Below, in pieces: positions 10,521 through 27,723 of a stretch of 64,000 nt of DNA. The stretch lies in assembly GCF_054482525.1 (NCBI RefSeq), contig NZ_CM137006.1, one strand, 5' to 3'. The notes below the pieces were generated by a model that saw only the letters and a program-made list of their open reading frames with translations, was not told where the DNA came from and searched no databases. The translations under genes and the position numbers were made by a program. Position 1 is the stretch's first letter. Each line of letters starts with the position of its first letter.

Positions 10521-10830
10521 TATTCCCCCTGCTGTTCCAGCGCATACTTATACAACGCATTCTTCTTCACTCCGTGGATTTCTGCCGCCAACGCCGCCGC
10601 TTGCTTCAACGGCAGCTCAGCCTACAACAGCGCCAGCGTACGCAGCGCATCGGCGGGCAGTTCGTCATCCTGGGCTTTATGGCCTTCAATAATCAGCACC
10701 ATCTCGCCTTTGCGAGGGTTTTCATCTTCTTTGATCCACGCCAGCAGTTCGCCGACCGACGTGCCGTGGATGGTTCCCAGGCGGGTGTTCATCACATAAC
10801 GGTATAGGGCATCATTCAGCGGAGCCATTA
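10521..10830 (-). pseudogene. rsmI (yraL)-like 16S rRNA methyltransferase 3' remnant with in-frame amber codon
   Basis: Minus-strand translation gives ...[86 protein letters not shown]; matches the RsmI C-terminus with CAG to TAG at 10622-10624; the 5' two-thirds is missing. Confidence 0.6.
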
Positions 10831-10932
10831 ACAGGCAGCACGCGTCAACCCAGTTGGAGAGTAACGCCGTCATTGGGTTATTTCTTTCCATAAAAATACG
10901 CAAACATGCCCCATACCTCCTGTTCCAACAGC

Positions 10933-12369
10933 TCAACCTTTCTTAATCATTGCCGAAATTGCGCCACAGTCATGAAACTTATCAAAACCAGTGGTGCCTT
11001 TGATATATTCAGTAACCAGAGTACCAATAATCTTAACCGTTTCTTTGTTCGTTGTGATAAAGCCCAGTGGCATCGTTACAGGCAATATTTCGGGTTGAGA
11101 AATATGATAGATAACGGCAGATAACTCATCCTCAAGATGAAGGATCTCAACATTACCATCTAACAGCCCCTCAACTAGTCCTTTAGCGTACTCATGGAAT
11201 TGCCCAAGTTCATACTTCCACTGTCTGGCAACCCGAGCATCAGCTGCATCCCGGACAGGTACGTACAGCACCGGTTTATACAGCTGCTTATCCTTCGTAG
11301 CCGACTTGCTAAGAAAATTGCTCAGGCTTGAGATAAATCGAATGCTTTTTGACCAGTAGGGATCTGATGGTGCCACCCAGATGAACGGGCTACCTCCATA
11401 ATCAGTTTTATCTCTGATACGCTGATTGAGCGCTGGTGCCAGAGCTTTCTGCAGCTTTTCCCAGTTGTTTTTAGAATAAACCGGACCTAAAAAAGTCGTT
11501 CTGCCTGAGGACGAGTATTCTTCCAGTGCTTGCATATCTTTGATAAACAACGGATTAAGTCGATTCGTTTTAGAGTCAAACAGCTTAAGCGTAAGGTCAT
11601 CGTTAATGGATTGCATGGCCTTAAAAATACTCATGGTATTGTTATGCCGTGATAACCTGGCTATCTCAACAGCCATTAACTCATGAACACATTCCGAACT
11701 ATTTAACTGTTCATAGTCTTCACGCTCGACAGCCTTACCATCGCTATCCATTTTAAATTCCGTTGTTAAACGGAGTGGTATTTGCCGCAGCTTATTAACA
11801 GAATTAACGGTATAGATAGAAGGTTGTTCTTTTCCGACCTGAACCTGCAGGTGAGACAGGTAACCTTTATCCAGGATTTGATTAAACTGGTATTGAAAGT
11901 GCTTCTCAACCAGTTTCTCACTTTGAGAAATGTTGTTGTCATCAACCTTTAATGTTACCCCTCCCCTCCAGTGGTCCTGAAAAGCCTGGTTGCTGAAGCA
12001 ACTAAATGTGGCTAAATCAAAGGATAAGGTACAGCCACTGTCCTGAATAGTTGAAAGATGCGGTATCTCGCCAACCTCTGAAAAATAGCCATTTGATTTG
12101 TCTGTTAAGGCCAGTCTGCCGTCTGAGGAGAGCGTCAATTCGCCACGCTGCACAAGATCGGAAATCGCCTCCTCTGTCTCACGGTGGGTCAGGCCGAAAT
12201 AGGTTGCTATTTGTGCTTTGCTCATCGAAGCTACATGAACAAGTCTCAGCACAAACTCCCGGATAAATGGCAGCCCCTTCTGGGAAACATAGGAAAACTG
12301 AATGTTAAACCTCTGTGCTGGCAGCAGGAAGTCAACCTCATGATAGGTAACTTTGTTATCAGATATCAT
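10933..12369 (-). CDS. hypothetical protein (478 aa), translationally coupled to the upstream helicase-domain gene
   Basis: ATG at 12369-12367 overlaps the TGA (12368-12366) of the upstream gene (ATGA overlap); no domain recognised by me. Confidence 0.7.
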
Positions 12370-15300
12370 TTCTTTTTGCCTCCCTGCTGAGCAGAGAGGA
12401 ACCTGTATCCAGCTTCCTGACCTCGCTCAGCCATATAACTTACAACGTAGCCTAATGGCAATTCTTTATTGTTTCCCTTCCAGATATCGGCATTACCCAC
12501 AATCAACAGTCGATCCATTGCGCGTGACATCGCGACATTTATACGGTTTGGAACGCGTAAGAAACCTGGGCTATGCTGCTTATCCGAACGCGTCAGTGAC
12601 AGGATAATGATCCGATTTTCCTTTCCCTGATAACTGTCAACAGTGTCAATTTTAACAATGTCCTTAAATCCCTCGCTCCAGATTTCCTGATTGAATTTCT
12701 GACGGAGTAACCGCTTTTGTTCGGCATACATACATATCACGCCGATAGCGGCTTCATCTTTGCTAACAAGTTTTGAAAGCTTAGCGACAAATTCTTCATT
12801 CTCTGACACCTGTTTAAGAACAGAAATAATCTCGTCAGCTTCACATCGGTTGTAAATGCTTGTTCCGCGATCTTCAAGATGATGTGCTCGGTGGCCCTGA
12901 TTAGCAGTATCAAGCCAGGTTACAACGCTACGTAACGCTTCCGGAGCTTGCTGATAGACATCCGGAATTGCCCGTACTCCATTCAGAAGCTTCCCGTCAT
13001 AAAACGTCTTCGATACGAGATTACCAATCGGTGGAGCCATACGATACTGGGTCATCAAAGCTGCACTCGTCTGCGCACCATAAGCAGAGTTGAAGGCTCG
13101 GGCAAAGTCACTTCGTAATACCTCGTCAATTTCAGTGCGGGAGTTATTGATACCCAGCTTCCTCGCTAATGCCGCCTTGTGGGCATCTGAGTACAATGGA
13201 GGAAGCTGCATGTGGTCACCCACCAACAGGACACGCCGGGCTGACTGCATTGCAATGGCCAGCTCACTTGAAATCGAGCGCGCCGCCTCATCAATAATCA
13301 CCCAGTCATAGATATTCTCCTGAATGCCAATGTGCCCTTGTCCAATACCAACGCATGTGCCAGCCACTAACTGCCTGGAGCGCGAATAAAACTCGTCCAG
13401 GTTCACTCGCTCTCCCGACATAGCATCCTGCATATCACGGGATATTTTAGCTAATGCTTTTACTCGTCTTGCCTCATCAGGTCTGACACCATACTCTGTA
13501 CATAGCTTGGAAATCAGAATGTCTTTTGCTGCTGAGACCTTCACGCCATTGTCCAAGTTAATCCCATACTCCTGACTCAGCTTAGAGCGGATGGAAAAAT
13601 CGAGTTCGACTGCAATATCTTTCAGTTCATTGCTCTCATTTGAATCCGTTAAATTGTTAACCTGATAGAGCAATTTCTCAAGGTGATCGATTTGTCTGAA
13701 CAAATTGAGCTCTGCAAGAACAACACCCGAAATAAATCCCGGCTCAAGACCAATAGCTTCACTCAATGCTTCAACACGGTACTTAATTTCAGCATTGAAG
13801 AGTTCGCGCTTCTCTGTTGTGATTGCGTGTGAGTACACATCTTTTAAGCCAGGGGAAACGGCTCCCTCTCGGTTGCTGAACCTGACAACGTCCAACTCTG
13901 TACCAAGCCGGGAACAATGCTTTCTGATACGCTCGGCCGCTGTATTCACAGCCTCGTGTGACTGGCTGACCAGTAAAATGCGTTTGGTATTCTGTTTCTC
14001 GATCAGGTAGTGAACAAAGGCCGCGATGAACTCGGTTTTACCGGTCCCCGGTGGCCCCTGAAGCAGGGAGAGAGGGCCATTATTGACCAGTTTGTTAAAC
14101 GCCTTTCTTTGCTGTTCATTCAGACTGATCTTGTTTCCGTGCTGATCTTCACGGTCGTATCTGGCAAAATCGGTATCGCTGAGAGTGATACCATAATTTT
14201 GAGCCGCCTGTTTGCAGGATGGATCGAACAAGTCAATTAAGTCAGGCAGCACACTTTCTCGATCTAGGAGACGTTCCAGTGCGCGTTTACGTTTCTGATA
14301 AGATGCACGAGTCGGCCTTGTACGGAAGAAGACAATATCAGAATCCTTCAGCTTGAAGGCTGCTGAACTAACTTTGACAAGACGAATCTCTTTGAGCTCT
14401 GACTTCTTAAGTGACACTTCACCAATAAATCGCTCAACACCTTCCTGATCGACCTGTAAGGCTTCGACTTCATCACTACTTCTGAAAGCACCGAGTGGAT
14501 CAACATCAGCAGAGTAAGGGAGAAGAAGCTCTCCATGAGCATCTGCAACCGGGACCACTTCACCGCTGATTTCAATGTTTGGATAAGATTCTGTTTCAGT
14601 ATCCAGAATGGCGCGCCACAGTTTCACTGTTGGGATTTCCAGCACTTCTCTTAAAGAAGGTTCAAGCGTCTGCTTATCAAGCCTTGCAAAGGTATCTTTT
14701 AGCTGAAGCGTAAGTGGCTCTTGTACCTGAACATCTTCAGTTGCGGCAATCAACTCGATTGCCCGCGCAAAAGATTCTTCTTCATTAAGCAATACTGTCA
14801 ACGCCGACAGATCCTGCGGACTGCCGGGAATAATCTTGATGCCAGTATCAATTTCGAACTGGCTTTCATCAATATCTTGCTTACGAATTGTGACGCGAGC
14901 CCGTGGCCTGAAGCCATGAACCAGCGTCTTCTGATCTTTGTTGAACACCGCAGTAAAACTGCCACCAATCCCAGAGAAAGTCACATTTACTTCAGCTGGC
15001 GCTTTAGGATTTGACTTAACTTTGACATACAGATGCCCGTTATCAGGCAGAATAGAGATTATTTCATCGGCATTTCCTGCAGTAATCTCTATCAGGTCTT
15101 GTTCTGGCACCAGGTCATTACTATCTATCGCTTTTTTAAAGCGGCCTAAATCCTTAAACCCAAAAACCGGATCTTCCAGCTCTGCTCGGATAGCATTCGC
15201 GATTGTCGGATAAATGTCTGATTCCAGCCCCCATGACATGCCTAGCAACTCGCAGGACATCTTCATCACTGCATAGTTGTCACGTTCAAAAGAAGTACAA

Positions 15301-15682
15301 TTATCAATGTATTCAGGGCTGTAACTGTGATTTTTAGGTTCGTCACCGGACGGTGAAAAATCGGGGATATCGATGAGAAAAAGCAAACGGCTCTGTGTCT
15401 CAAATATCACATTGCCAGGGTGGATGTCCCCGTGAGAAACACCCAGACCATGTAAGTGCTCAACGGCGGCGACAAACTTACCAATGAGGTCGATTTTTTC
15501 ATCATCGGGGACCGCTATTTTATCCCAGGTTTCTCCCTGTACCTGATCCGTGACCATATATAGGCTTGATGATTTTGATGCGATACCGAATTCACGAATT
15601 TGAGGTAGATACGTTGTTTTAACTGAAGAAAGCCGCTCAACCTGCTTTAAAAACTTCAGAACCTGGAAATTAATTGACGGAT
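12366..15682 (-). CDS. 3' portion of IS629-split gene: protein-kinase-like C-lobe plus SF1 Upf1-like helicase
   Basis: ORF track 12366..15557 (1063 aa); the frame stays open upstream to the IS629 boundary at 15682 (my manual translation). Motifs HGDIHPGNVIF and IDIPDF (kinase-like), GPPGTGKT (Walker A), VIIDEAA (Walker B), DTVDSYQGKE and VAMSRAMDRLLIVG (SF1 helicase). Confidence 0.75.
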
Positions 15683-15736
15683 TGAACCGCCCCGGGAATC
15701 CTGGAGACTAAACTCCCTGAGAAAGAGGTAAACAGG

Positions 15737-16063
15737 ATGACTAAAAATACTCGTTTTTCCCCCGAAGTCCGTCAGAGGGCGATTCGTATGGTTCTGGAAA
15801 GTCAGGGCGAATATGACTCACAGTGGGCGGCAATTTGTTCCATTGCCCCAAAGATTGGCTGTACACCGGAGACTCTGCGTGTCTGGGTACGCCAGCATGA
15901 GCGGGATACCGGAGGCGGTGATGGCGGGCTCACCACCGCTGAACGTCAGCGTCTGAAAGAGCTGGAACGTGAAAATCGTGAACTGCGCCGCAGTAACGAT
16001 ATCCTTCGCCAGGCTTCCGCTTATTTTGCGAAGGCGGAGTTCGACCGCCTCTGGAAAAAATGA
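15737..16063 (+). CDS. IS629 transposase OrfA
   Basis: 108-aa [25 protein letters not shown]... with HTH and leucine-zipper-like C-terminus; IS3-family OrfA. Confidence 0.85.
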
Positions 16064-16950
16064 TGCCACTGCTGGATAAGCTGCGTGAGCAGTACGGGGT
16101 CGGACCGCTATGCAGCGAACTGCATATTGCCCCGTCAACGTATTACCACTGTCAGCAACAGCGACATCATCCGGATAAACGCAGTGCCCGTGCGCAGCGC
16201 GATGACTGGCTGAAGAAAGAGATACAGCGCGTATACGATGAAAATCATCAGGTGTACGGTGTGCGTAAAGTCTGGCGTCAGTTGTTACGGGAAGGTATCA
16301 GAGTGGCCAGATGCACTGTGGCACGTCTCATGGCGGTTATGGGACTTGCCGGTGTTCTCCGGGGTAAAAAGGTCCGTACGACCATCAGCCGGAAAGCCGT
16401 TGCCGCAGGCGACCGCGTAAACCGTCAGTTCGTGGCAGAACGACCTGACCAGCTGTGGGTGGCTGATTTTACTTACGTCAGCACATGGCGGGGCTTCGTC
16501 TATGTGGCGTTCATCATTGATGTGTTTGCCGGATACATCGTGGGGTGGCGGGTCTCATCGTCTATGGAAACGACATTCGTGCTGGATGCTCTGGAGCAGG
16601 CGTTATGGGCCCGTCAACCGTCCGGCACAGTCCATCACAGTGATAAAGGTTCTCAGTATGTATCGCTGGCCTACACACAGCGGCTTAAGGAAGCCGGATT
16701 ACTGGCATCAACAGGAAGTACTGGTGACTCGTATGACAACGCGATGGCGGAGAGCATCAATGGCCTTTACAAAGCGGAGGTAATACACCGTAAGAGCTGG
16801 AAAAACCGGACAGAAGTGGAGCTGGCCACACTCACGTGGGTGGACTGGTATAACAATCGACGATTGCTGGAAAGGCTGGGCCATATCCCACCGGCAGAAG
16901 CAGAAAAAGCTTATTATGCTTCCATCGGAAACGATGATCTGGCAGCCTGA
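16060..16950 (+). CDS. IS629 transposase OrfB (DDE integrase domain)
   Basis: 296-aa ORF overlapping orfA; DDE transposase core; normally expressed as an OrfAB fusion by frameshifting. Confidence 0.85.
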
Positions 16951-16992
16951 GTTCACAGATAAAACACTCTCCAGGAAACCCGGGGCGGTTCA

Positions 16993-18649
16993 GATCGTAT
17001 CCCTGTCCCCCAACATTCAGCCAAGCCTTCACGAGCCTTCCTTTCGAGATATAGACTTCTTTGTCGACTGTTTCGACCTGAAACTGAAAGCCATCGTCTT
17101 CCGGGTATTGACGAGCGTGATTGATAGCATGTCGGTAAGGGTCAAGCTCAGTATCATCAAATGTTGGAATATCCTTGCCAGCAGGTTCGGCTTGTTTCAG
17201 GGCATCAAAGAATTCTGTTGCAGAAGTGAATTTTGCGGCAACGGCATCCCGTAATACAGATGAATACCAGTGCTGGCTGTTTAGCATGTTGTCCTGTACT
17301 TTCTCCAGACTCTTTGGCGACATGCGCATACCGCTAAATAAGTGCCAGGCGACAAGGCCCAGAGTATGAACATCTTGCTGAAAAGGCGTAAGCTCGCCCT
17401 TATCAAGCATGTCTTTTACGTGGACTGCACCTACGGATAAAAGCTTACGGTAATCGCCAACCGTTCCGGCTGGCTGGTGGTAAGCCGAAATAAAGTTCGA
17501 AAGAGCAACTTCTTTTGAAGGTGAAATCCACAGACTGTGATCGGCGACATCCCTGTGCGCAATTTTCATCTCATGGAGATCACTAAACTTTGCAATGAGC
17601 AGTTTCACCACATTCAAGCGGTCCATATCAGAAAAGTTCTTACCATATTTTCCGATAAACTCATTAAACCGGACATGACCCGGCGGAACTTCGTAGACTT
17701 CGCTATACTCGGCCGTCACCTCGTCTTTCTGAAAACTCGTCAAAGACCTGAGACAGTGGTTATACAGGTCACGATTCTGGTGATTGATGTGCTGTAACAC
17801 TTCGCGCTCACGTGAAACAATCTGAGCTCGTCCTTCCGGGGTATTCGCTTTCGTTCCCGTTATATTTCTAAAATTCCATACTCTGAGTAGCGCTTCGCTG
17901 TTCGTTGATATCTCAGATTTTGCCAGATATTCTCGATACACCTTTTTAGGATGTTCGAAAATCATATCATTAGCTTCATAGCCATTAACTCTCAAGGCTT
18001 TTGGTGCCGTCTGAGGCCCTAGGAACAAATCATCGAAAAGATGGAAATCCTTGTTAAGAACCTTGGTAGCTGGGTGCGGTTTGAAATAGTTATTGAAGCT
18101 CCCGCGATCGGCAAACTTCAGGAAATCTTTTAACGAGATCGTATGGCGCCGTTGTTCCTCCGGCAGCGCGCTGAAATCTGCATTGCCGGTCATCACAACA
18201 AAAAAATGAACAATCGGGATATAGCCTTTGTTCGTAAAACGGTCTACCAGACGCTTGAGTTTTTTGTCCAGCATGAATTTTTTGCTACGAGTCACGCTTA
18301 CTGGCGAGCGCCCCATGTTCTTATCACCTTTAAACCAAGTATCTCCGCGTGCGGTTACAGGCTGATGGTTCCAGTCTTTCAGTTCAACAATGATCACGTT
18401 GCAGTGTGTTACAATAACTAAATCGAATTCCCCCTCTTTTTTTGCCTCAACAAATCGAAAACCTGCATAACCTTTCCAAGGGAACATTTCATTGCCGATA
18501 AAACCATAGCTTTTTAGCTGCTCACTAATTGAACCGCTACGGAAAGGCTTGTCAGGCTTAGATACGTTGACTGAAAAAGCAGCTTTTATTTTCTCGATAG
18601 CCAATACTTCCTGTTCTTGTAAGCCACCATCCCACATTTCTACTTCCAA
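16993..18649 (-). CDS. 5' portion of IS629-split gene: NERD nuclease-related domain plus protein-kinase-like domain
   Basis: TTG start at 18649 preceded by AAGGAG; NERD-like signature EFDLVIVTHCNVIIVELKDW; kinase-like HRD at KIAHRDVADHSLWI and DVHTLGLVAWHLFSG. The annotated ORF runs on into IS629 (to 16832), so its last about 50 codons are IS-derived. Confidence 0.75.
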
Positions 18650-19311
18650 CGGTGTTCTCCTTAAATTTCAGTAAAAATAAGGTCATTTATTCTGGTCAAT
18701 ATGGCAGGTTTCGATGTTTATAGTTCTGAATACTATGGTGTTTTACACGTTCATTCTGGTTATTATACGTAGAAAAGAATTTATCGGGCAACGCCGAGAT
18801 GACGCGGCCCCGTTAAACCGTGTAGTGGTAGATGATGAGATCAGATACAGGGATCAACTGACGGTGAGCGCAGTCCCCACATTTTATCCGGAGTTTACCG
18901 CTATTCCCGGCTGCCATTCGTTAGCACAGGCCCGCAAGTACCCTGATTTGCCGCTGGTTTTGCTTTCCCATCGAAGGGCCCATACATCATCACGCCCGCG
19001 AAACAGTCGACAAAATAACGCAACTTTCTCATCCGTGGATAATACGGAAACGCACTGCACAGGACTCTGCGGTTTACGTCACCATTCAATCCCATAAGCT
19101 TCAAGTTATGTTTGCCCTCAGTGCAGCTAATTCATCACTGTCAGATTTATGAACCATATTCGTTACCTGTATCCGATCCACTGAGGCACCACGGCAGAAA
19201 TTCGGGTCCCCTACACTGATGACAAAGCGCCCCGCCCTCTTCTGCCTATTAACTCAAGCACCTCCCAACAACTTACAGAAACTTAATTCTAATACCTAAT
19301 ACAACTGTAAT

Positions 19312-24179: not shown

Positions 24180-25997
24180 ATGTATAATTTTATCACTATA
24201 ATGTATGATGTCTTTTCATGTTTTGGTGTTCTGGCTAAAAACCAGAATAGCCGTGACATCCGAAATATTAAAAATTTTTCCTCACATCAACATTCACTGG
24301 GCGACATGTTTGATGAATTAATAAACATTATTGATAAAGAACAAGTATTGAGTAAAGAACAACGAAAAGTTATATTTAGGAGATATGAAGATCTCTATGT
24401 TAAGCTAATGCACTATTCTGTTTTTACAGACAAAACACATCAAATAATAAAACAAAAATATTTTAATGACATTGTACCAATGATTCTCGCACTCGACATC
24501 AGGAACACATATCGCCCGGATAATGAGATGGCATTTTACTATCATATTCATTCTTTTCTCACTCAGATACCGGATAATGAGGATGATATATATCATGCTG
24601 CAAGGACATATCTGCGAAATTACGTTAAGTTATGTTTATCCGGATACACGCCAGCGAATGCGCATTTCAAAGATATCTTTGATGGCGTATATGAATTCAT
24701 TCGTAATATTCGCAAAAACAGTACACCAGGAAAAACAAAACTTATCGCAACTATCAACACATGCAAAGAAACCTGTAAACATCTGCTTTATTTAAGTAAT
24801 GAAGACAAGGAAAAAATAATTTCTGACTTAGATAAAGTTCAGGTTGCATGTTATTATCTCACTATATTACTGGCTTTCGAAAGACGAACTTCATTAACAA
24901 GCACCCTGGCAACTTTATATAAAATGCTGATAAGCGAAAGAGAAGTTTCAGAATATGAATGCCAGTTATTATATTTAACCAACCCAATAGATGTAATGAA
25001 TATACTGAACAAATACATATATTACTTTCCTAATGAGAACTCACCATTTTATACACTGAAAATTGACAGTGCATTATCGTGGGATGCCATTGACGCAATA
25101 CGAGACTATAGTATTTCTGATATTTATCTTTATCCTGAACAAAAAACAATAAATTGTGTCGTTGAGATTGAAAACATTGTCTTTGGCGGTTACATTTATA
25201 CATTGAACAACGGCGTCACATTACAAAACATAGAAAACTCTTTAAAAGATTCTTCATGCCATTATGTCTTAAATGGCTATACAGAATTTGTTAACTGTTT
25301 GAGACAACTTACTTCAGGAAAGACTGAAAGTGTTCATCGCACCATCAATAAACTGAACTATGAGAAATTACCTTTTGGATTTATCATTGCCGCGTTTGCT
25401 ATACTAAAGATAGCATTTAAAATAAAATTCAGTAAAAATCATGTAAATATCCGAGCATTATTAAATGACATCAATTATTTTATGACTTATCAGGGCGAGT
25501 CCATTAACCTTATTTCACTGGATCACGAATACCCAGAGTCCTGTCTTCAAAATGACACAAACACATATTTATTAGGAAGAGTAATATTTCTGTATAACTC
25601 AATGATTTATAAGTTCATAAACTGTCAGGAACATGAAACCAATAACATTCACTCAGCTATGATAAATAACCTATTACAGGAAGTTGATATAGCCCTTGGT
25701 AAAATAAATGACATTATAGACAGCAGAAACATATCAACCCCCCATGAACTGGCAAATATTCTTACCCGCGAAAAAATACTTACAACACGGGAAAAAAAAG
25801 GAAACCTGATAAGCCTGTTTGATGGATTCACTTTATTCCATTGTGTTGGAATGATAACCTTTCTTATCCATTATCTCAGAACACCTGAAGAAAAAGTTGA
25901 AAATATATTTATGTTATATGGTGCAGATAAAAACAATAAACTACGCAGAAGACTGATTTATGACGCACTAGGAATAATTCAGTCTCAGCAGGAGTGA
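24180..25997 (+). CDS. hypothetical protein (605 aa), strongly AT-rich orphan gene
   Basis: ATG at 24180 preceded by AAAGGAG (24167-24173); no motif recognised; composition far more AT-rich than the backbone. Confidence 0.6.
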   Translation: MYNFITIMYDVFSCFGVLAKNQNSRDIRNIKNFSSHQHSLGDMFDELINIIDKEQVLSKEQRKVIFRRYEDLYVKLMHYSVFTDKTHQIIKQKYFNDIVPMILALDIRNTYRPDNEMAFYYHIHSFLTQIPDNEDDIYHAARTYLRNYVKLCLSGYTPANAHFKDIFDGVYEFIRNIRKNSTPGKTKLIATINTCKETCKHLLYLSNEDKEKIISDLDKVQVACYYLTILLAFERRTSLTSTLATLYKMLISEREVSEYECQLLYLTNPIDVMNILNKYIYYFPNENSPFYTLKIDSALSWDAIDAIRDYSISDIYLYPEQKTINCVVEIENIVFGGYIYTLNNGVTLQNIENSLKDSSCHYVLNGYTEFVNCLRQLTSGKTESVHRTINKLNYEKLPFGFIIAAFAILKIAFKIKFSKNHVNIRALLNDINYFMTYQGESINLISLDHEYPESCLQNDTNTYLLGRVIFLYNSMIYKFINCQEHETNNIHSAMINNLLQEVDIALGKINDIIDSRNISTPHELANILTREKILTTREKKGNLISLFDGFTLFHCVGMITFLIHYLRTPEEKVENIFMLYGADKNNKLRRRLIYDALGIIQSQQE

Positions 25998-26183: not shown

Positions 26184-27386
26184 TTATTTATTCACAATTT
26201 GAGACATCACATAATCCGCCCATGCCTGCATCATCGGTACACGCTGCTCCAGTAGATCAGTACGATGATATGCCGCCTCAACCTTATTTTTCAGCGTATG
26301 AGCGAGCGCCCTTTCCGCCAGATCCCGCGAATACCCCTGTTCGCTACACCAGTCCCTGAATGTTGAGCGAAAACCATGTGCCGTGGCAACTCGCCCCGGA
26401 ATGTCACTGACGGCTTTCTTTTTACGCAGAAAACTTGTCAACACCATATCGGAAAGGATCTGCTGCTTTCTGGGTGAAGGGAACACCAGTTCATCATGCA
26501 GGCCACGTATATTTTCCAGAATGTAAATAGCCTGCCGGGATAAAGGAACACGATGCTGTAGCCTAGCTTTCATTCTTTCTGCAGGTATAGTCCATACCCG
26601 CTTATGAAAATCAATTTCAGCCCAGCGCATTCCCCTGGCTTCGCCCGAGCGAGTTGCTGTAAGTATCACCATTAATAACAGTGCGCGGGTAACATTATAA
26701 GGTTCATCGGTATACACACTGGTCGCCACAAAAAGCGGTAACTGCCTCCAGGGCATTGCGGGTTGGTGTTCATCACGTCCTCTTGTCTGCTGAGGAAGCA
26801 AATGGTCAACCACATCAACAGGATTTGCTACACAAAAACCGTGCGCCCATCCCCACTGCATAACAACATGAATGCGCTGTTTAACCCGGCTTGCCGTTTC
26901 TGACAAGGTTAACCAGACTGGACGCAGTGTTTCTGCCACGTCCGCAGCCGTAATCGAATCCAGCGTTTTTGCTCCCAGTTGAGGAAACGCGTAATTCTCA
27001 AGCGTCGATAACCACTGCCTTACATGCTTTGGATTTTCCCATCCAGGAGACAGTTCTGCATGTACACGCCTGGCTGCATCGGCAAATGTTGGGATAGCGA
27101 CTTTCTCAGATTCAGCCTTTTTAATCTCCAGAGGATCATCACCTGCAGCAAGTTGCTCTCGCATTATCCGGGCAGTACGTGCAGCTTCAGCAATACTGAC
27201 CTCTGGGTAAGTTCCCAATCCAGCATTACGTCTTTTTTGTGTCACCGGACTTACATAACGAAAAACCCATTTCCCCCGCCCCTTTACTGAAGAAGGATGA
27301 AGGGTCAGTCCGGTAATTCCCCCATGGGGCAATGGTTTGTCATCAGGTTTGATATGTCTTGCTTTCGTATCCGTCAATACTGCCAT
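26184..27386 (-). CDS. int: tyrosine site-specific integrase (P4/CP4-57 IntA-like)
   Basis: 400-aa ORF with phage-integrase C-terminal catalytic region (...HGFRSTFRDW...LAHTL...AYHRTDL); N-terminus lies about 160 bp from the island-end direct repeats. Confidence 0.85.
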   Translation of the reverse strand: MAVLTDTKARHIKPDDKPLPHGGITGLTLHPSSVKGRGKWVFRYVSPVTQKRRNAGLGTYPEVSIAEAARTARIMREQLAAGDDPLEIKKAESEKVAIPTFADAARRVHAELSPGWENPKHVRQWLSTLENYAFPQLGAKTLDSITAADVAETLRPVWLTLSETASRVKQRIHVVMQWGWAHGFCVANPVDVVDHLLPQQTRGRDEHQPAMPWRQLPLFVATSVYTDEPYNVTRALLLMVILTATRSGEARGMRWAEIDFHKRVWTIPAERMKARLQHRVPLSRQAIYILENIRGLHDELVFPSPRKQQILSDMVLTSFLRKKKAVSDIPGRVATAHGFRSTFRDWCSEQGYSRDLAERALAHTLKNKVEAAYHRTDLLEQRVPMMQAWADYVMSQIVNK

Positions 27387-27606: not shown

Positions 27607-27723
27607 ATTGCACTCCAGGGGGGATGAGAAGCCCCGACCGGGGTTCGACAACTGGCGCAGCCAGTTGGACAGACCACGAACGCAGTGAGTGGGCTGCCCG
27701 CAGGGCGAGCGAAGCGAGTCAAT

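Follow-up and report, generated by a model that had tools for sequence, protein, structure and literature searches.

The window, i.e., the whole stretch of 64,000 nucleotides of DNA that was analyzed, harbors two neighboring minus-strand genes, here named mkoA and mkoB after the genes of the Mokosh type I system to which they are assigned below (Table 1). The gene mkoB overlaps the stop codon of mkoA by 4 nt, and mkoA is present as a 5′ and a 3′ fragment on either side of an insertion sequence (IS). The genes reside in an island with a tyrosine integrase at its far end, and this island is collinear with that of Escherichia (E.) coli ATCC 43896.

Table 1. Features of the mkoA−mkoB locus (positions in the window)
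Feature	Position	Strand	Remarks
mkoB	10933..12369	-	478 aa; N-terminal winged HTH and C-terminal PLD-superfamily fold
mkoA 3′ fragment	12366..15682	-	bases 2 and 3 of codon 548, then codons 549-1652 and the stop
Upf1-like SF1 helicase	about 12489-14123	-	Pfam AAA_11, E 8.8e-38; AAA_12, E 5.8e-42
β-barrel/helical linker	about 14124-15254	-	on 3′ fragment
Remainder of kinase-like domain 2	about 15255-15680	-	on 3′ fragment
GAT target-site duplication, copy 1	15680..15682
IS3-family insertion sequence, IS629-like	15683..16992	+	1310 bp; inverted repeats, IS3 transposase model match
Left inverted repeat	15683-15707		25 nt
IS orfA	15737-16063
IS orfB	16060-16950
Right inverted repeat	16968-16992		25 nt
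GAT target-site duplication, copy 2	16993..16995
mkoA 5′ fragment	16996..18637	-	codons 1-547 and base 1 of codon 548
Pseudokinase-like domain 1	about 17228-17965	-	Pfam Pkinase, residues 270-446, E 0.03
NERD nuclease domain	about 18233-18481	-	Pfam NERD, E 1e-6
Tyrosine integrase, far end of island	26184..27386	-	NCBIfam integrase domain, E 3.5e-55

Insertion sequence and repair of mkoA

The element between the two fragments is a member of the IS3 family, as defined by its length of ~1.3 kb, inverted repeats that start with TG, the 3-bp target duplication and the orfA/orfB frameshift, while “IS629-like” is used as a name only. The inverted repeats begin with TGAACCG and are 92% complementary. 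The reading frames orfA and orfB overlap, and the NCBIfam IS3 transposase model matches both (orfB, E 7.5e-94). Copies that are 100% identical are present in other E. coli, where RefSeq annotates them as “IS3 family transposase” and “AL1L pseudoknot”.

The original prediction held that the two flanking minus-strand ORFs are one gene, split by the IS, and that this gene can be repaired in frame. Both statements are borne out by deletion of positions 15683−16995 followed by translation, which yields a single minus-strand ORF of 4971 nt, starting from TTG 18649, without any internal stop and with a repaired junction (...GGQGYD-PSINFQ...) identical to that given originally. The likely start of mkoA is ATG 18637 rather than TTG 18649; RefSeq places the start of the intact gene at the same ATG. 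The protein, MkoA, is then composed of 1652 aa, and the insertion point is found within the codon of Asp548. When the repaired DNA is aligned to the uninterrupted mkoA of E. coli ATCC 43896, a single synonymous base differs among 4959, and the encoded protein is 100% identical to MkoA of that strain (WP_001333439.1). Therefore, the reconstruction is real rather than a chance open frame. Uninterrupted homologs, which the original prediction proposed to seek, are found in E. coli: the uninterrupted mkoA site is present in 331 of 5426 complete genomes, and uninterrupted MkoA homologs always adjoin a 478-aa neighbor.

Domain architecture of MkoA and MkoB

In MkoA, a NERD domain is followed by a first kinase-like domain (with an HRD motif), a second kinase-like domain (HGD..N, D), which is the one interrupted by the IS, a linker of ~370 aa and a Upf1-like SF1 helicase. 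This order had been predicted from the ORFs, and Pfam, matches to PDB sequences and residue conservation agree with it. Conservation of the catalytic residues was scored over 88 full-length MkoA homologs (89 sequences). The PD-(D/E)xK residues of the NERD domain, D72, E85 and K87, are essentially invariant among the 88 homologs. Kinase-like domain 1 no longer has the Asn and Asp that bind metal and therefore reads as a pseudokinase. Kinase-like domain 2 (Pfam Pkinase, residues 577−657, E 1e-5) retains K537, D633 (of HGD), N638 and D652, each of which is kept in 82−87 of the 89 sequences; the first part of its N-lobe, including Lys537, is encoded on the 5′ fragment. The PADLOC profiles for the PD-T4-6 kinase also match MkoA (E 8e-12).

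The linker holds two β-barrel modules in front of the helicase, which has all SF1 motifs, the Walker A sequence GPPGTGKT, the DE motif and the later motifs being conserved in at least 85% of the 89 sequences. Its closest matches among PDB sequences are Nam7/Upf1 (E 7e-30 to 1.3e-27). When compared to the eukaryotic SF1B enzymes Upf1/Nam7, Sen1/SETX, DNA2 and IGHMBP2, MkoA differs in being bacterial and fused to nuclease and kinase modules, and neither a CH domain nor any other accessory domain of the eukaryotic enzymes was detected in it.

MkoB was described as a PLD nuclease by Millman et al. (2022, bioRxiv 10.1101/2022.05.11.491447). The window MkoB is devoid of the canonical HxK(x4)D motif, i.e., the Lys and Asp of HKD are lost and an invariant His422 is retained. 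Searches of MkoB against NCBIfam and Pfam gave zero matches, and a profile search of its homologs against PDB sequences gave matches at chance level only, so the proposed relationship between MkoB and PLD is one of fold alone. The supplement of the above preprint holds no table of point mutants and does not show which Mokosh system carried the PLD active-site mutation.

Probable consequences of the insertion

The disrupted Mokosh copy is most likely non-functional. The insertion would part the NERD and pseudokinase domains from the kinase core plus helicase, and the downstream part of mkoA would lack its promoter as well as a ribosome-binding site. The 5′ fragment, as present in the window, reads into the IS until a stop at 16832, which adds 54 foreign residues to give a 601-aa product, and this truncated NERD−pseudokinase protein could still be made.

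Alternatively, the split might be tolerated, such that the 601-aa NERD−pseudokinase with its IS-encoded tail and a 1063-aa kinase-core−helicase protein, translated from ATG 15557, work together with MkoB. The two ORFs are long and show no other damage, and mkoB is intact with a product that is 100% identical to that of the allele beside the intact gene (WP_000622487.1), an identity from which the insertion also looks recent. However, the cut is located ten residues past the conserved β3 Lys537, within the N-lobe of a kinase domain that retains its catalytic residues, and ATG 15557 is the codon of an internal Met588 of MkoA, found behind a 1.3-kb IS and without a Shine-Dalgarno-like sequence in front. 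In addition, the architecture is fused in every full-length MkoA homolog. None of the 5426 complete E. coli genomes contains the exact IS/mkoA junction, and a search of public assemblies for a sequence identical to the 601-aa product returned no record; because the arrangement is found in no other genome, there is no sign that it has been retained by selection. A functional split is consequently considered improbable. That the insertion is an assembly artifact, the gene being intact in the organism, is scarcely credible, because even if E. coli genomes carry many copies of this IS family (median 4 places per genome) and repeats are able to mislead assemblers, the inverted repeats are complete, the 3-bp target duplication is clean, as IS3-family transposition yields, and the flanks join perfectly once one GAT copy is removed. 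The preferred reading is that of an inactivated copy: a complete type I Mokosh system has both genes intact, and here mkoA is split at codon 548.

Relation to Mokosh and other defense systems

E. coli is protected against phages by Mokosh type I (Millman et al. 2022, bioRxiv 10.1101/2022.05.11.491447). A search of the repaired protein with PADLOC profiles, as suggested in the original prediction, gave a full-length match to the MkoA profile PDLC03921 (E=0, 2206 bits, residues 1−1648 aligned to positions 5−1603 of 1607), and the 478-aa neighbor matches the MkoB profile PDLC03923 (E 1.9e-151). In the supplement of Millman et al. (2022), entry SG199 (“Mokosh type I”, “v”, E. coli SEC470) describes a clone with a “Kinase-Helicase” MkoA of 1652 aa, starting MWDGG..., and an “HTH” MkoB, and this system is marked “Verified” in Table S8. 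The SEC470 clone sequence was compared over its first 399 nt and aa only, where E. coli TUM1886 is identical to the published start (399/399 nt and 399/399 aa), and TUM1886 served as a stand-in for the rest; the window MkoA and MkoB are 97.5% and 98.5% identical, respectively, to the TUM1886 proteins. Gene order and sizes (1652 and 478 aa) are common to the window and SEC470, and the upstream regions are alike, including a TOTE-primase remnant. The two loci differ in that only the window mkoA has the 1310-bp IS3-family element at codon 548; otherwise, the window allele is the ATCC 43896 variant, with the greatest divergence from SEC470 at residues 100−200 of MkoA. MkoA also has the Upf1-like (COG1112) SF1 RNA-helicase domain and the Ser/Thr-kinase domain of Mokosh type I. 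We assign a probability of about 0.93 to the reading of the locus as a type I Mokosh operon, mkoA−mkoB, of the SEC470 subtype, with an IS3-family (IS629-like) insertion that breaks mkoA within codon 548.

The gene is, in other words, already known, an ordinary inactivated copy of a system described in 2022. The original prediction of an undescribed defense gene of novel NERD / kinase / kinase / helicase architecture finds some resonance in the database, because MkoB is without a match in Pfam or NCBIfam and NCBI names the intact proteins only “AAA domain-containing protein” (MkoA) and “hypothetical protein” (MkoB); these RefSeq names are uninformative, and the locus is therefore easily mistaken for a new one by a sequence-only reader. 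The proposal is nevertheless refuted, and its probability is negligible, given the full-length matches to both curated profiles and the near-identity (97.5% for MkoA) to a Mokosh type I allele listed as experimentally verified in 2022; furthermore, the literature already includes a NERD domain in Mokosh type I. The accompanying proposal of an anti-phage role in an integrase island is supported, now with Mokosh type I as the identity of the system and with the integrase found in the island.

A second type I system, that of E. coli ETEC H10407 (SG202, bioRxiv 10.1101/2022.05.11.491447), is also composed of a kinase−helicase MkoA and an HTH-containing MkoB. The helicase and preceding region of the window MkoA are homologous to it (PDLC03920, E 2e-130, residues 878−1635), as is the N-terminal half of the window MkoB (PDLC03922, E 1.2e-13, residues 12−248). 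In contrast, the H10407 MkoA consists of 1215 aa, begins with kinase-like sequence and has no NERD module, and its 602-aa MkoB harbors a canonical HKD motif (..GSHAKIIVCD..GSCN..), which the window MkoB lacks; the family profile of the latter displayed no significant similarity to the HKD-bearing part of the H10407 protein (probability 0.5%).

The original prediction could not match the double-kinase architecture to any named system, but a triad of NERD, inactive and active S/T/Y kinase has been published for PglW (type 2 BREX/Pgl) and DndF variants (NAR 2026 gkag035; NAR 2024 gkad1213). Residues 53−442 of MkoA match positions 33−433 of the PADLOC PglW profile PDLC02512 (E 4e-27), and the order is the same, i.e., NERD, a kinase-like domain without the catalytic metal ligands and a kinase with them. 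The C-terminal half of MkoA is a Upf1-like SF1 helicase, whereas in PglW and DndF this part holds wHTH repeats and an inactive STAND, or a P-loop kinase. Membership in the PglW/type 2 BREX group was rejected, as the N-terminal module alone matches, the C-terminus is a helicase and no BREX or Dnd genes were found adjacent to mkoAB in the island. In ten further large ORFs in and around the island, PADLOC identified no second defense system, the sole matches being AAA+ matches to ClpA. The suggested resemblance to Nhi lies in the combination of a NERD-type nuclease with an SF1 helicase in one anti-phage polypeptide, for Nhi as well as Nhi-like proteins. Nhi has neither kinase modules nor an MkoB partner, both of which are present at the window locus (two kinase-like domains plus a conserved MkoB), and no Nhi profile is found among the best 25 of the 48 PADLOC families matched, the full-length match being to MkoA; Nhi membership was rejected on these grounds.

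The ATP site of the helicase is required for Mokosh defense (bioRxiv 10.1101/2022.05.11.491447). In an intact system, the helicase would travel along phage nucleic acid, RNA or a replication intermediate, and this movement would turn on a nuclease activity. In the SEC470 subtype, the nuclease would most plausibly be the NERD domain, because the HKD motif of MkoB is degenerate, and the active kinase would serve as a regulator or co-effector. For T4-like phages, evasion of an E. coli Mokosh type I, which may not be of the SEC470 subtype, needs DNA glucosylation and the Alt ADP-ribosyltransferase (HIDEN-SEQ preprint). Purification of type I Mokosh was unsuccessful in a 2025 preprint.

The main significance of the finding is one of annotation, i.e., the locus is a decayed copy of a known defense system. 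A separate knock-out of the same mkoA, by ISEc52, is found in E. coli strain 504838, and the repeated IS knock-out of mkoA in E. coli (by the IS629-like element and by ISEc52) fits the known rapid turnover of defense islands. For work with intact alleles, the residue-level map offers mutational targets, namely the active NERD, the pseudokinase, the active kinase and the degenerate PLD of MkoB. It is possible, although we lean somewhat against it, that in the SEC470 subtype the effector role has moved from MkoB to a NERD domain gained by MkoA, where D72, E85 and K87 are essentially invariant across diverse homologs. If so, MkoB would be a DNA-binding or regulatory partner, TrmB-like, and the published label “helicase + PLD nuclease” would misfit the widespread SEC470 subtype.

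Identity of the locus

MkoA and MkoB make up type I Mokosh, an anti-phage system that owes its name to Millman et al. 2022. After in silico repair of the interrupted gene, the encoded protein matches the PADLOC MkoA profile (PDLC03921; E=0, 2206 bits) over residues 1-1648 and profile positions 5-1603 of 1607, while its 478-aa downstream neighbor matches the MkoB profile (PDLC03923) at E 1.9e-151. In Millman et al. 2022, MkoA of the E. coli SEC470 system is a "Kinase-Helicase" of 1652 aa that starts MWDGGLQEQEV..., MkoB is listed as "HTH", and the system is marked "Verified" in their Table S8. The SEC470 clone was compared directly over its first 399 nt and 399 aa, where E. coli TUM1886 is identical (399/399 nt, 399/399 aa); the full TUM1886 genes stand in for the remainder. 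MkoA and MkoB of the window are 97.5% and 98.5% identical, respectively, to the TUM1886 alleles, and the locus is therefore a near-identical allele of a system that has already been cloned and demonstrated to protect E. coli.

The locus is thus Mokosh type I of the SEC470 subtype, an ordinary copy of a known system, probably inactivated by the IS, with no undescribed element in its architecture, and the original prediction of an undescribed defense gene does not hold. It belongs neither to PglW/BREX nor to Nhi, the group that the original prediction had mentioned for comparison; none of the 25 best PADLOC matches (of 48 families matched) is an Nhi family.

Features of the interrupted operon and of the repaired MkoA protein
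Feature	Position	Strand	Size	Basis
mkoA 3' ORF	12366-15557	-	1063 aa	ORF list
mkoA 5' ORF	16832-18649	-	605 aa	ORF list
two ORFs between the mkoA fragments		+	108 and 296 aa	ORF list
inverted repeats of the IS	15683-15707 and 16968-16992		25 nt each	
tyrosine integrase (island end)	26184-27386			
NERD	MkoA residues 53-135			Pfam, E 1e-6
Pkinase, weak	MkoA residues 270-446			Pfam, E 0.03
Pkinase, clearer	MkoA residues 577-657			Pfam, E 1e-5
AAA_11	MkoA residues 1068-1377			Pfam
AAA_12	MkoA residues 1404-1612			Pfam

The insertion, intact alleles and the island

The proposal that one gene had been split by an IS and could be repaired in frame was borne out: removal of 15683-16995 fuses the flanks into a 4971-nt ORF without internal stops, and the junction peptide is exactly as originally given. 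The insertion point is codon Asp548 (numbered from the ATG at 18637), a GAT trinucleotide is found on either side of the element, and the 108-aa and 296-aa ORFs match an NCBIfam IS3-family transposase model (E 2.7e-11 and 7.5e-94). Other E. coli genomes carry the 1310-bp element at 100% identity, with the RefSeq labels "IS3 family transposase" and "AL1L pseudoknot"; the assignment is at the IS3-family level, with IS629 as a plausible name. Copies at least 99% identical were found in only 135 E. coli records and copies at 95-99% in more than 5000, so that the element is a minority variant within the IS629/IS1203 group and might be of use in tracing the lineage of origin.

Intact copies of mkoA are common. 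Among 5426 complete E. coli genomes, the N-terminal half of the gene is present in 352, and a 400-nt probe over the repaired insertion site is uninterrupted in 331. E. coli ATCC 43896 has a single 1652-aa CDS, WP_001333439.1, annotated "AAA domain-containing protein"; the next gene encodes a "hypothetical protein" of 478 aa. Repaired MkoA is 100% identical to WP_001333439.1 (the underlying 4959 nt differ at one synonymous position), and MkoB is 100% identical to its counterpart; the islands are collinear at 99.4-99.9% identity, with the IS as the sole large difference. The insertion looks recent, and apart from it both parts of mkoA and all of mkoB are identical to the uninterrupted allele. 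The IS/mkoA junction of the window is absent from the other complete E. coli genomes of the 5426 searched, and an exact-sequence look-up of the truncated upstream product in public assemblies gave no record.

In E. coli 504838 (locus L003, NZ_CP025856.1, 7285-9445) the same gene is cut by a different element, the IS3-like ISEc52, which indicates that IS-mediated loss of the system is recurrent; in that strain only a "nuclease-related domain-containing protein" pseudogene remains, with mkoB and the remainder of mkoA missing. Strains H72 and H73 have annotation of the same kind.

Directly upstream of mkoA (window ~18820-19160, from 10823-11158 of locus L001) lies a frameshifted remnant named [quoted passage not shown] in RefSeq. 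It also precedes mkoA in ATCC 43896, TUM1886 and 504838 and hence travels with the Mokosh operon. A 605-aa ORF within the island (24180-25997, + strand; "hypothetical protein" WP_000282209.1 in ATCC 43896) has no PADLOC or NCBIfam matches and is conserved beside the integrase in several strains. ARAGORN identified no tRNA or tmRNA genes in window 1-64000, although the island ends in a tyrosine integrase. Synteny with ATCC 43896 stops near 27657. In that strain the integrase of the island lies directly against RtT/tyrT; in the window, segment 28000-52000 is instead 97.7-99% identical to the clpA-macB-ybjD region, and a satellite or prophage-like element (a ClpP-like prohead protease/major capsid fusion and a DNA primase family protein) falls within it. 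These flanks, with malX/malY on the other side of the island, suggest that the chromosome has been rearranged or that the island occupies a different location.

Catalytic positions in MkoA and MkoB

The predicted order NERD, kinase-like, kinase-like and SF1 helicase agrees with the Pfam matches; among solved structures, Nam7/Upf1 are closest to the helicase, with DNA2, IGHMBP2 and Sen1 next. When residues 1-1065 were searched against 1.84 billion cluster representatives, 197 proteins scored E<1e-30; because most are 1570-1730 aa long, the fused architecture is that of a large family. The double-kinase arrangement, which the original prediction matched to no named system, is also on record: NERD is already among the Mokosh type I domains in a 2023 review table, and residues 53-442 match the PglW profile (E 4e-27), in agreement with the published module of NERD, inactive kinase and active kinase in PglW and DndF.

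Catalytic positions were scored on an alignment of 88 full-length members (counts out of 89 sequences). The NERD domain has D72 and E/D85 in 89/89 and K87 in 88/89, an intact PD-(D/E)xK site. In the first kinase-like domain, an invariant Arg252 occupies the beta3 Lys position, E277 and H361-R-D363 are retained, the catalytic loop lacks Asn and Ser380 replaces the DFG Asp; we read this domain, conserved yet devoid of metal ligands, as a pseudokinase. The second retains K537, H631-G-D633, N638 and D652 and looks active.

Conservation is high in the SEC470-type MkoB family, with 55-90% identity across Gamma- and Betaproteobacteria. Its members carry no Pfam domain, and MkoB of the window has no NCBIfam or Pfam matches and no HxK motif. 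Residues 416-441, where a PLD HxK(x4)D...GSxN signature would sit, form a strand-loop-strand starting VIYH422 and ending 436F. His and Gly are spaced as expected and His422 is invariant in 34 homologs, but Ser424 stands in for the Lys and there is no Asp. MkoB of the H10407 system, another cloned E. coli type I Mokosh, has the HTH and PLD fold in common with this protein, whereas the catalytic signature is degenerate in the latter; a profile comparison of the MkoB family with the HKD-bearing H10407 fragment revealed no similarity. MkoB therefore resembles a PLD nuclease at the fold level only, and we infer that NERD is the better nuclease-effector candidate in the SEC470 subtype.

Proposed mechanism and effect of the insertion

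Mokosh protects E. coli from phages, and mutations in the helicase ATP site or in a PLD active site abolish defense (Millman et al. preprint; the text does not name the system in which the PLD site was mutated). Type I Mokosh could not be purified (2025 preprint). According to the HIDEN-SEQ preprint (2025), escape of T4 from an E. coli type I Mokosh system depends on Alt and DNA glucosylation, which points to a DNA-level step and an ADP-ribosylatable host or defense protein. The Upf1-like motor may sense phage nucleic acid and thereby license nuclease action of NERD and/or MkoB, with the active kinase as a possible regulator or co-effector, as proposed for PglW and DndF.

The cut made by the IS lies ten residues past Lys537 and leaves a predicted upstream product of NERD, pseudokinase and a kinase 2 stub followed by 54 IS-encoded residues. 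The downstream ORF begins at internal Met588, behind 1.3 kb of foreign DNA, with no Shine-Dalgarno-like sequence before its start. We infer that this Mokosh copy is inactive. Only two points go slightly beyond the literature consulted: residue-level evidence that kinase-like domain 1 of MkoA is inactive and domain 2 active, and the finding that the HKD motif is degenerate in the PLD fold of this MkoB.
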